Positions 950-4,051 of a stretch of 64,000 nt of DNA are shown here, piece after piece. Location of the stretch: contig OZ024743.1 of NCBI GenBank assembly GCA_964016885.1, positions 185,752,001 through 185,816,000 on the forward strand, in the 5' to 3' direction. Below the pieces are notes generated by a model, which worked only from the letters and a program-made list of their open reading frames with translations, did not search any database and had not been told where the DNA came from. The DNA comes from Eledone cirrhosa (Eukaryota). Position 1 is the first letter of the stretch. Each line of letters opens with the position of its first letter. A program made the translations under genes and the position numbers.

Positions 950-1768
950 TAAAATGGAGGGGTAGAGAGGGCCTATGAGTCCAGTAAGACAGCCTCTCTA
1001 GTGCTGGTGGCACGAATAAAAGCACCCAGTCTATGCTGTAAAGTAGCACTGGTGTTAGGAAGGGCATCCAACCAGTGTATCAATGCCAAAACAATTATGA
1101 GCACAGCAACAAATATATACCATGTTAGGGCTGCGCACGGTAGTGGGGCGGCTGGTGCAACCATGTGCGAGAACCCCCTGACCGTCTTCAAGCAATCGCA
1201 CTACAGGAAAAGGAACAACAAAAATATGAAGACGTCGCATCTCAGAGTTGCAACACTTAATGTTGGCACTCTCACAGGTAGATCTGGTGAAATAGCAGAG
1301 ATGCTGGAGAGAAGGCATGTGGATGTGTGCTGCGTGCAAGAGGTGAGATGGAGAGGTGCCTCTGCGAGACTAATCACAGGCAAATATCTTAGTTATAAGC
1401 TTTTCTGGGTGGGTAAGGATGATGGGTTAGGGGGAGTAGGCATTTTCCTGGCTGAGAGATAGATCAATAAGACAGTAGAGGTAGTTCGAGTTAATAATCG
1501 AATAATTAAGCTTAGATTAGTTGTAGGCAGGAGACTACTGACAATCATCTCTGCCTATGCTCCCCAAGCAGGCCAAGGTAAAGAAGAGAAAGACTGCTTT
1601 TACGAGCAACTTTTACAAACAGCCGCAATGACAGAGGACGGAGACATCGTTATGCTAGCAGGGGACTTCAATGGTCATGTTGGACAGCTCCAGGATGGTT
1701 ACACTGGGGTACATGGTGGGCACGGTTACGGCTCAAGAAATGAAGAAGGAGTGAGACTTCTTGAGTTT
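950..1768 (+). mobile_element. 5' part of an RTE LINE (APE endonuclease, disrupted), truncated at 1768
   Basis: LRVATLNVGTLTGRS..VDVCCVQEVRW..GVGI, stop at 1460-1462, then SAYAPQ and AGDFNGHVG motifs in the same frame. Confidence 0.85.
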
Positions 1769-1917
1769 AAATAATTACACACAATTATTATTTTTTATAT
1801 TAATGTCAATGATAAAGAATATATAATATATATATCTATATACATATATATATAAAATATTAAAAAAATAATGAATAAAACAATGAAACAGTTCCTTATA
1901 TTAAACAAAAAAAGTTC

Positions 1918-2064
1918 ATTATTTAACGATCGTTTCTAGGACATATATGTGTTAGAATTGGCATGCATATTTAACAGATCTATGTACAAAATTATACAAA
2001 ATTATACAAACTATCAAATTTAATATACATACCAACACATATATATGCCGTCTTCAGAAATAAT
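1918..2064 (-). ncRNA. Type I hammerhead ribozyme candidate (HHR-1) with a long stem II
   Basis: AUUAUUU-CUGAAGA-[long imperfect stem II]-GAAAC-GAUC-GUU-AAAUAAU; perfect 7-bp stem I and palindromic minimal stem III. Confidence 0.65.
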
Positions 2065-2340
2065 ATATATATATATATTTATATATATATTTATATATAT
2101 ACAATATATAGAGAAACACACAGATACATGCGGACACATACATACACATGAATATATCCACATATATTCCTGAGTTAGTGGTACCAACCTCAACCGATGT
2201 TGCTCTATGAATAACTGGGACAGAACTACCCGAATGGATTAGATTGATTCAGTATCAGAGCTATAAAGTACATTATGAAGAGAGAAGAAACATTAGATAT
2301 AATTAGTAATAAGATATATCATACCTAGCTGGTTCTTCAG

Positions 2341-2434
2341 TCCCCGACTACGTAGTTTCGTGGCATATTGTGCAAAAACACTACATCAAAGAGATATAGG
2401 GTTTTTGTGAGGTTCTGCCGACTTATCAAGGGGA
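2341..2434 (-). ncRNA. Type I hammerhead ribozyme candidate (HHR-2), U3-A8 core variant
   Basis: UCCCC-UUGAUAA-GU(C)GGCA..CAAAAAC-C-CUAUAUC-ucuuu-GAUGUAG-U-GUUUUUG..UGCCAC-GAAAC-UACGUA-GUC-GGGGA. Confidence 0.7.
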
Positions 2435-2948
2435 TGCCTCATTAAGGATTTCAAAACACGTCTGTGATGCGTGAGATAGAATCTCGAAAAGGCGGAGAGG
2501 GAGTCAATCACGTGATACAGCGGTCAAGAGCTAAGCCCCTTATAACCCTGAAAAAAATACCACGGAGACGGAGGGGGTATTTATATCAAAGCCGTAGAAG
2601 AGGTGGTTTGAGGAGGCGAGAAGTATGAGTAATGGTAGCTATCCAGCAGTCACTACACTTCAAAGGTTACTCGACCAAAGGGAGTTATAAACAATATTTA
2701 TAGAGAAACACACAGATACATGCGGACACATACATATACATGAATATATCTACAGATATCCCTGTGTTAGTGGTACCAACCTCAACCGATGTTGCTCTAT
2801 GAATAACTGGGACAGAACTACCCGAATGGATTAGACTGATTCAGTATCAGAGCTATATAATACTATGTAGTCGAGGACTATAGAAGCAGTTTAGGTATGA
2901 TATATCTTATTACTAATTATATCTAATGTTTCTTCTCTCTTCATAATG

Positions 2949-3004
<56 letters not shown>

Positions 3005-4051
3005 GTATGTATGTATATATGTCTATATATATATTATATATTCTTTATCATTGACATTAATATAAAAAATAATAATTGTGTATAATTCATATAGCTTAGG
3101 ACAGAGGTGGCGTTGAGAAGGTTCGGCGAGGTCTGGGCCTAAAAAGGTTTTGGGAGGAGGATAATAGAGAAAAGGAGCATTGGTAGGAATGGAGAGGCTG
3201 TAAGTGTCTTTCTGCCTGTGAAAACTTGTTCTTTCCCCAACTTAATCAAACACTCTTCCCAGGGCTGGGTTCATCAAATATTTGCAGCTTTAGAGACAAC
3301 AGATTGCTATCAGAACAAAAGGTATCTCATATCACTTACATGGAGATCATCAACCATCAGATGGTTGTGGCATTTGTTTGTGTGTGTGTATGTGCCCACT
3401 TTCACTCTATATATATATGTATATCTACCCACACACACCCATCAGTGGTTAAGGAGAGTGAAGAGAGTACCACTGAGCTGCTGTTAAATTTCACTGTGTG
3501 TGTGTGATTTTATATATATATATATAACAAAGAGGGTGTGGTAAGATACCAGGTGGATCATACATAACACACCAGAGTACTCGATACTTGGGGTAGTTGT
3601 AGAGTGGGTAATATGAAAAGATTCAGGACCCTGACGGCTGAGCTCCAGCCGTTTCGACAGCTAGATCCGAACTGAGTTCAGATCTAGCTGCCAAAAGTGA
3701 CTGAATACTACCATTCTCAACATCTGCTACTGCTTATATATATATATGTGTCAGAGTTATTCTTAGTAAAATTCAGCCCGAGATTGAGCGGCTACTTTTA
3801 CTTCACCAAACTCATCCTTCTCATTGAAGCCCGTCCTGGATGGGCTGTTTTAGTGGTATAGTATTGACTTCTCCAATATGCATTGTAAATTTGTGCATCA
3901 TTTTATTGAGTAAGAATATATTTGCATATGTAAAAAGGTCTCTTTTTTTTCGGTGGTGGCTTGAGGGACACTATGAATTTATTATTTATAATATCATTAT
4001 AGTATTGTATATATATATGATATAATAGTATATTAACTATCAAATGATACA

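Follow-up and report, generated by a model that had tools for sequence, protein, structure and literature searches.

Penelope-like elements (PLEs) leave insertions made of inverted arms with a tail on one side only (PMC8557442), and an Anolis element of this kind has two internal initiation sites in vitro (PMC11167929). Mobilisation of retrozymes by Penelope enzymes has been proposed from co-occurrence and from similarity to Penelope pLTRs, with the mechanism left open (PMC7229834, 10.64898/2026.07.22.740005), and Li et al. 2026 argue that retrozymes derive from Penelope elements (10.64898/2026.07.22.740005). Retrozyme circles are known and have been proposed as templates for copies of more than one unit (PMC4209133, PMC7229834), while Penelope integration with such circles as template is so far a proposal (PMC4209133, PMC7229834, 10.64898/2026.07.22.740005). 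In vitro, the Poseidon element inserted mostly uncleaved RNA and its own ribozyme was dispensable (PMC11167929); among the Xenopus retrozyme dimers tested, 8/9 did not cleave (10.64898/2026.07.22.740005).

Here, we analysed a 64-kb stretch (hereafter the window) of the 3.0-Gb genome of the cephalopod Eledone cirrhosa, in which two different hammerhead ribozymes, HHR-1 and HHR-2, lie close together within TA-rich DNA. We consider it probable that the locus is formed by two separate hammerhead families, F1 and F2, nested in one TA microsatellite, with F2 likely spreading via a Penelope-type enzyme that copies a predicted self-cleaved circular RNA. In the part of the literature searched, there is no description of an octopus or cephalopod retrozyme family, of F2, or of an insertion mode with one start site per arm.

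Architecture of the locus

The features of the locus are collected in Table 1. The LINE fragment on its left has 2,413 first-look candidates genome-wide, with top matches at 97-99%. Its relatives continue beyond the equivalent of position 1768, where the PF03372 ORF ends here, and no adjacent continuation past 1768 exists within the window, in agreement with the original prediction that the LINE, there called an RTE, is broken at this point. The repeated blocks described in that prediction are likewise present: the direct copies of block B (2094-2271 and 2686-2863) are 93% alike, the inverted arms of block C are 97% alike over 66 nt, and those of block A are 91% alike over 82 nt. Block A itself, to judge from its other copies, is a third and older repeat, separate from both ribozyme families. 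Since its two copies here reach 98%, above the similarity to A family members, they are likely to represent a local inverted duplication. This duplicate sits where the LINE is cut, and the A family in other copies reaches ~90 nt further 5'. The F1 part of the window comprises the last 213 nt of F1, and the F2 copy contains one complete HHR-2 and therefore cannot by itself release the family monomer.

Table 1. Features of the locus, in window coordinates
Feature	Position	Strand	Basis or remark
LINE 5' fragment with APE endonuclease	953..1768	+	PF03372, E=7e-6; end at 1768; host sequence, outside the ribozyme elements
Block A, fragment of an interspersed repeat of older date, running into (TA)n	1768..1822	+	at least 247 first-look candidates, 86-96% outside this locus
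F1 pLTR piece: HHR-1 and sequence to E1 at 1852, 5'-truncated 3' end of a Hydra-clade Penelope	1852..2064	-	genome matches
HHR-1	1918..2064	-	motif scans and folding
(TA)n-rich tract separating F1 and F2	2065..2095	.	sequence
F2 direct arm, ~1.3 units, to E2 (~2100)	2096..2863	-	genome matches
F2 direct-arm order: B' 2863-2686, D 2690-2435, HHR-2 2434-2340, C 2339-2272, B tail to E2		-	sequence comparison
HHR-2	2340..2434	-	motif scan, folding, core kept across copies
F2 inverted arm: helix III palindrome, then C, to E1	2862..2947	+	subfamily variants unlike those of the direct arm
(TA)n tract	2948..3037	.	sequence
Block A, inverted copy	3030..3100	-	58-nt match to the left copy at 98%

Two type I hammerheads on the minus strand

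Two type I hammerheads, both on the minus strand, are the sole matches of the motif scan in the whole 64-kb window, at the places where two different ribozymes had been predicted. A stricter scan kept HHR-1, with 0 matches in 20 shuffled windows, and missed HHR-2 because its helix II is bulged. Rfam at its gathering threshold returned 0 matches over the whole window and thus flagged neither HHR-1 nor HHR-2; for the HHR-2 type, this is explained by the U3-A8 core and the helix II of ~57-63 nt. HHR-1 has the core CUGAAGA (2057-2051), a helix I formed by 2064-2058 with 1924-1918, a helix II region of 114 nt, GAAA at 1936-1933 and a palindromic helix III, and its predicted cut lies at 1925/1924. 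HHR-2 has the core UUGAUAA (2429-2423, U3-A8), GAAA at 2359-2356, a helix I formed by UCCCC (2434-2430) with GGGGA (2345-2341), a helix II region of 63 nt and again a palindromic helix III, with a predicted cut at 2346/2345. The two predicted cuts are 421 nt apart.

In constrained folding of an RNA that stops at helix I, each ribozyme fold is 1.1-3.9 kcal/mol off the minimum. In both F1 (1852-1924) and F2 (2270-2345), the 3' strand of helix I can also enter an alternative hairpin that ends just before E1, the nearer of two fixed 3' ends described below; for transcripts extended to E1, this hairpin is predicted to be more stable than the ribozyme fold by 3-9 kcal/mol. On these folding models, the hairpin may possibly act as an off switch or as an enzyme-binding site.

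HHR-1 is part of a Hydra-clade Penelope element

The HHR-1 region has at least 474 first-look candidates in the genome, the best 40 of them at 99-100%. Longer copies of F1 run from an ORF through a ~2.8 kb 3' UTR to HHR-1, 73 nt, E1, an optional 134-nt tail and E2, and HHR-1 is collinear with the RT-GIY ORF and the 2.8-kb 3' UTR in L064, L078, L071 and L076. HHR-1, whole or in part, and the tail also stand 5' of the F1 ORF in 9/19 stretches sampled at the ORF start (two of these overlap), the upstream cut site lying 360 nt before the F1 ATG; occurring both upstream and downstream of the ORF, HHR-1 and the tail constitute a true pLTR. The 3' ends of F1 lie in TA, and F1 has 438 relatives at E<=1e-30.

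The single ORF contains an RT followed by a C-terminal GIY-YIG, read by motif as YRDD and then IVYKC..SYIGAT (L073, L062, L064); a Pfam search of this ORF assigned no family. The genome thus contains long-helix II hammerheads and Hydra proteins that escape Rfam and Pfam thresholds. F1 further displays DKT, the CxCx5C linker as CNCRNKANC, a divergent RT4 (MGSSDSAQ), no CCHH, and RWR, a variant of RWK. Its assignment to the Hydra clade is based on these motif features, as given in PMC8557442; the exact F1 motifs are absent from the searched part of the supplement to that paper. Identity with a Naiad PLE was ruled out, as the F1 endonuclease is C-terminal and the Naiad criterion is an N-terminal one. 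By its sequence, then, HHR-1 marks a clipped pLTR, the 3' end of a Hydra-clade Penelope element that is young, autonomous and equipped with RT and GIY-YIG. The cephalopod host fits the published Octopus Hydra and Naiad families.

A sharp 5' boundary of F1 arms lies 5-7 nt ahead of the HHR-1 core (2058-2064 in the window); it was found in 15 arms at 11 further loci when the less biased set is considered (L022, L023, L029, L031, L034, L037, L039, L040, L041, L044, L076) and in 22/50 arms overall, in a truncation sample that is not wholly unbiased in that AT-rich words were skipped in the short F1 3'-end query. A long hairpin predicted by folding has its base at the same point; as to how the end arises, stalling of an exonuclease or folding back of the cDNA can only be guessed at.

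F2, an ORF-less family carrying HHR-2

The F2 unit is ordered HHR-2, C, B, D and back to HHR-2; it contains no protein-coding ORF (longest stop-to-stop frames 51-72 aa) and no LTR, and its GC content is 39-40%. These features identify F2, as far as its sequence tells, as a non-LTR retrozyme. The HHR-2 region has at least 2,654 first-look candidates, the best 40 at 92-100%, and the exact two-part core pattern matches the genome 6,432 times (3,319 + 3,113), against 0 for the reversed control. Measured from cut to cut, three dimers of the older subfamily have monomers of 595, 596 and 623 nt; a second subfamily, younger and with more members, has a 591-nt monomer and is 78-82% similar to the first. 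Dimers to 5-mers are spaced at 590-596 nt, and arms reach 6.8 units.

The 13-nt HHR-2 core is intact in 74/87 full older copies. Core departures amount to 15/1,131 letters vs 219/5,481 in helix II, a difference of which, the core being AT-rich, part may reflect mutation rate. Helix I occurs in C-G, U-G and U-A forms across copies, and the young subfamily carries the compensatory pair UCCUC/GAGGA. A seeming accumulation of F2 5' ends where D begins was attributed to the length filter and set aside.

Entire F2 insertions were found duplicated along with their flanks, by segmental or tandem duplication, at L267 and L162-L164. About ten more hammerhead types with palindromic helix III and a 14-53-nt helix II occur in the flanks of the loci studied (L063, L065, L040, L033, L051, L050, L066 and others); one of them, whose helix II measures 51 nt, recurs at ~560-nt spacing in L065 and may be a second retrozyme.

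Two fixed 3' ends pair across the arms of an insertion

F2 copies consist of head-to-head arms whose 3' ends are nearly always followed by (TA)n, or by a CT run and then TA. The 3' ends fall at two fixed positions, E1 after C, ~76-80 nt past the cut site, and E2 after B, 165-175 nt further. The two ends are almost invariably paired within a locus: one arm at E1 and the other at E2 were found in 39/41 clean two-armed loci of the older subfamily (the other two being E2+E2) and in 36/36 of the young subfamily, thus in 75/77 clean F2 loci overall (p ~4e-20 vs independent choice), with loci of unclassified ends (ten older, three young two-armed) excluded from the counts. F1 gives the same pairing in 12/12 scorable loci of 17. 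At L003, either arm has sequence that is absent from the other, and hence neither arm is a fold-back copy.

Because the E1/E2 pattern matches the one-sided Penelope tail together with two initiation sites, movement of F2 by a Penelope enzyme is well supported, and an enzyme of the Hydra type is likely.

Circular or linear RNA as the template of F2

Units of one F2 insertion resemble each other far more than units of different insertions. Over 40 loci, units differ by 0.55-0.59% within a locus vs 4.2% between loci, and discord at diagnostic sites in older F2 copies is 0.10-0.12 within vs 0.445 between loci. Among rare variants (seen in at most two loci) from 59 young F2 loci, 40 of which were chosen as multi-unit, 44 occur in every covering unit (26 of these in both arms), 9 in only some of the units, and 179 in a single unit. 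At L262, the variants of the locus are present in all 7-8 covering units, and no other match exceeds 98% among the best 40 scored candidates. The 5' ends of F2 are scattered over the unit, and arms pass through the cut site scarlessly. On a cleaved linear monomer, synthesis from E1 or E2 could extend only 80-250 nt before reaching the cut, yet none of 30 block-C matches starts there and arms of several units exist, which calls for another template. The simplest account of the shared variants, and our best reading of these sequences, would be one circular RNA read repeatedly from two primers. The dispensable Poseidon ribozyme, the non-cleaving Xenopus dimers and the hairpin predicted before E1 all speak against this reading.

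The strongest competitor retains the same nest and the same Penelope-type integration but takes as template the uncleaved linear read-through of multimeric arrays, the ribozyme being unneeded. No copy starts at the cut site (0/30 block-C matches) and there is no excess of 5' ends there; unprocessed RNA was the dominant Poseidon substrate in vitro (PMC11167929, in the part consulted); arrays of 5-7 units exist, and a uniform source array would likewise yield shared variants; and the predicted hairpin before E1 would switch the ribozyme off. Such a template, however, requires a uniform source at least as long as the daughter arm and bearing the same rare variants, and for L262 none is present among the best 40 scored candidates. 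In addition, the HHR-2 core and the compensatory helix I pair are kept between F2 subfamilies only 78-82% alike, at odds with a ribozyme that is not needed. We regard the linear template as unlikely, though it deserves more credit than the other alternatives.

Growth and homogenisation of F2 arrays at the DNA level, by unequal crossover or conversion after insertion of a monomer, has been proposed for retrozyme arrays (10.64898/2026.07.22.740005, in the part consulted) and would spread variants among direct units. Against this, the 26 variants noted above extend over the two inverted arms, few variants are partly shared (9 vs 44), and arms start anywhere in the unit yet finish exactly at E1 or E2, which makes the DNA-level origin very improbable.

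Returning to the circular template, we lean, by a modest degree, to the view that the genome holds a fossil record of rolling-circle retrotransposition, in which a Penelope enzyme, priming from both target strands at two fixed sites, would have copied one circular 591-nt RNA up to seven times and thereby fixed its private changes, some of them A-to-I edits, in each unit of the two arms. The proposed course of events would be as follows. F2 dimer loci would be transcribed; HHR-2 would cut, its palindromic helix III perhaps allowing it to act as a dimer; and a host ligase would close the monomer into a circle. A Hydra-type RT-endonuclease would then nick both (TA)n strands, the two DNA ends would prime at E1 and E2 of the same RNA with synthesis running round the circle, and the two cDNAs would finally be joined head to head.

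The window copy departs from the common pattern. Its units differ at 4/8 and 5/5 diagnostic sites, and the different subfamily variants of its arms indicate two templates, as must hold for at least some insertions; we read this copy, from its sequence variants, as an older, chimeric insertion.

The suggestion of RNA editing derives from an A>G share of 17/43 among shared substitutions vs 10/157 among single-unit ones, counted with L267 excluded as a duplicate; two loci contribute 8 of the 17 shared A>G, and a count per locus gives 9 each for A>G and T>C. At L262 (G000:C1:50.59 Mb) and L275, A>G clusters are common to all units (4/6 and 4/4). The data suggest A-to-I editing of the F2 template RNA and, coming from few loci, serve as a lead only.

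With its thousands of copies, precise ends and variants specific to single molecules, the young F2 family renders the template question testable both by sequence and at the bench. If the rolling-circle record is true, it would be genomic evidence that hammerhead-made circles template the integration of animal retrozymes, and one site per arm would stand as a general rule of Penelope insertion.

Candidate partner enzymes of F2

No ORF-bearing element with F2 ends was found among the Hydra, Neptune-like and Poseidon-like candidates examined, so the enzyme that mobilises F2 is one that we infer. The Hydra RT query has 39,422 first-look candidates in the genome, and intact Hydra ORFs in the same genome provide candidate enzymes. 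A young Hydra family (L073:3539-5683, L192-L210) has intact ORFs, a length of ~5.6 kb and a microsatellite-rich 2.8-kb 3' UTR, with 2,109 candidates for its ORF-start query. Two further Hydra families (L076:1689-3676, L081-L101; L189, L212-L260) possess hammerheads of their own with a 26-27-nt helix II and ATATATAT helix III. Hydra-2 was rejected as the F2 partner, being without similarity to F2, and Neptune-like and Poseidon-like ORFs near F2 copies are not joined to F2. L189, the sole F2-Hydra junction seen, was also rejected as an autonomous F2: it is a chimera, since 0/24 other copies of its Hydra-3 3' UTR lead into F2, running into their own ribozyme instead. At this locus (L189:1505-3078, G000:C3:290.06 Mb), the Hydra-3 ORF end and 3' UTR are fused without TA to the 3' part of F2, by template switch or by insertion with deletion.

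F2 could in principle be merely a pLTR, belonging to an autonomous Penelope family with an ORF that escaped the searches. Its layout resembles a Hydra pLTR (cut to E1 of 73 nt in F1 vs 76 nt in F2, then a tail), Penelope copies are mostly 5'-truncated, and the searches scored the best 40 candidates. D, however, always runs from B back to HHR-2, closing tandem units of 591-596 nt, and the Penelope protein matches near 70 F2 stretches are in no case joined to F2 in register; we therefore give this possibility very little weight, even less than homogenisation at the DNA level.

Separate families in one TA tract

The two ribozymes keep apart elsewhere in the genome. HHR-1 lies within 700 nt downstream of F2 in 0/127 other F2 arms (97 loci), and F2 within 500 nt upstream of F1 in 0/58 other F1 arms (46 stretches, a few overlapping). 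A 77% relative of HHR-1 occurs near F2 at L013, but upstream of it. Among the best 40 scored matches to a query spanning the B-(TA)n-HHR-1 junction, only the window locus matches over the full length, and the top three partial matches by length are plain F1 copies. Neither ribozyme was found at the other block A loci (0/13). Other ribozyme families also adjoin F2 copies and many end in the same TA tracts, which explains the neighbourhood of HHR-1 and HHR-2; F1 and F2 adjoin here because both end in (TA)n.

A single ORF-less element bounded by inverted A, whose two hammerheads release a 421-nt circle, is thus close to untenable and the least credible account of all: both ribozymes do lie on the same strand at that distance and a read-through transcript could be cut twice, but the co-occurrence counts are zero, the junction is spanned by this locus alone among the best 40 scored, F1 and F2 differ in age, A is a separate older repeat, and in such a circle the HHR-1 core would, by sequence complementarity, face a helix I strand of HHR-2 with which it would be unable to pair, leaving multimers unable to recut. 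The 421-nt piece would be at most a one-locus by-product of a read-through transcript. Contigs of one sample (three sets, of unspecified kind) over 1500-3300 are without the 2345-1925 joint, which has no bearing on expression or circles.

With the locus resolved into two families and an older repeat, the original prediction of one ORF-less element carrying both ribozymes falls, as does the role of the inverted A copies as its ends. Its broader expectations fare better. High copy number and conserved cores among copies hold for HHR-2, and the former for HHR-1 as well, with its count as a minimum; the Penelope-type tandem and inverted anatomy recurs in the head-to-head arms with their E1/E2 ends. 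A non-autonomous Penelope/retrozyme-like family is an apt description of F2, whereas HHR-1 is part of an autonomous Hydra-clade element. The RNA unit of ~420 nt matches the cut-to-cut distance in the window, but the family monomer runs from HHR-2 to HHR-2, 591-596 nt. Autonomous Penelope elements with RT and GIY-YIG do occur in the genome, F1 among them; none with F2 ends was found among the candidates examined. What had been flagged resolves into a pile-up of elements in one microsatellite, a caution that ribozymes lying side by side in TA-rich genomes often belong to unrelated elements.

Comparison with known systems

The individual parts of the locus are each of a known kind. F1 shares with the published Hydra-clade PLEs (PMC8557442) a single ORF with RT and C-terminal GIY-YIG, DKT, divergent RT4, CxCx5C and the lack of CCHH, as well as the (TA)n target, a pLTR hammerhead, arms that are inverted and 5'-truncated, and a tail on one side. 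It differs from the Hydra PLEs in the consulted part of that work in having RWR in place of RWK, a length of ~5.6 kb with a 2.8-kb 3' UTR vs <3 kb, a helix II region of 114 nt vs short loops and a tail of 134 vs 30-40 nt, and its ribozyme differs from one listed there for Hydra-1_Obim.

The insertion pattern of F1 and F2 resembles that of Poseidon PAc of Anolis (PMC11167929), in which two internal initiation sites bound the tail; we count as further likeness that both DNA strands are cut and extended, that the target is AT-rich and that the enzyme is predicted to be dimeric. In the reported in vitro assays of PAc, however, the start site showed no strand difference, whereas here each arm uses one site almost without exception. 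HHR-2 itself is similar to the minimal Penelope hammerheads, including the U3-A8 type of Schistosoma Cercyon (PMC4209133), in its palindromic helix III, U3-A8 covariation and G10.1-C11.1 pair. Compared with the examples in the consulted part of that paper, helix II is much longer here, and the helix III stems of 2-3 bp may permit activity as a monomer.

Among known systems, animal non-LTR retrozymes (PMC7229834; 10.64898/2026.07.22.740005) are like F2 in consisting of tandem units that lack an ORF and carry a single type I hammerhead, with ~40% GC, in forming dimers to multimers, in their thousands of copies and in occurring beside Penelope elements. The F2 unit of 591-596 nt exceeds the ~170-400 nt of the tested animals and falls inside the span of 51-972 bp given by Li et al. 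Relative to the retrozymes in the consulted parts of these sources, F2 is set apart by its U3-A8 core, its helix II of ~57-63 nt and its dispersed head-to-head (TA)n insertions with two fixed ends, its circles and cleavage being predictions. What is new in F2 is thus the long unit, the U3-A8 core, the long helix II, together with an overt signature of insertion by the Penelope mode.
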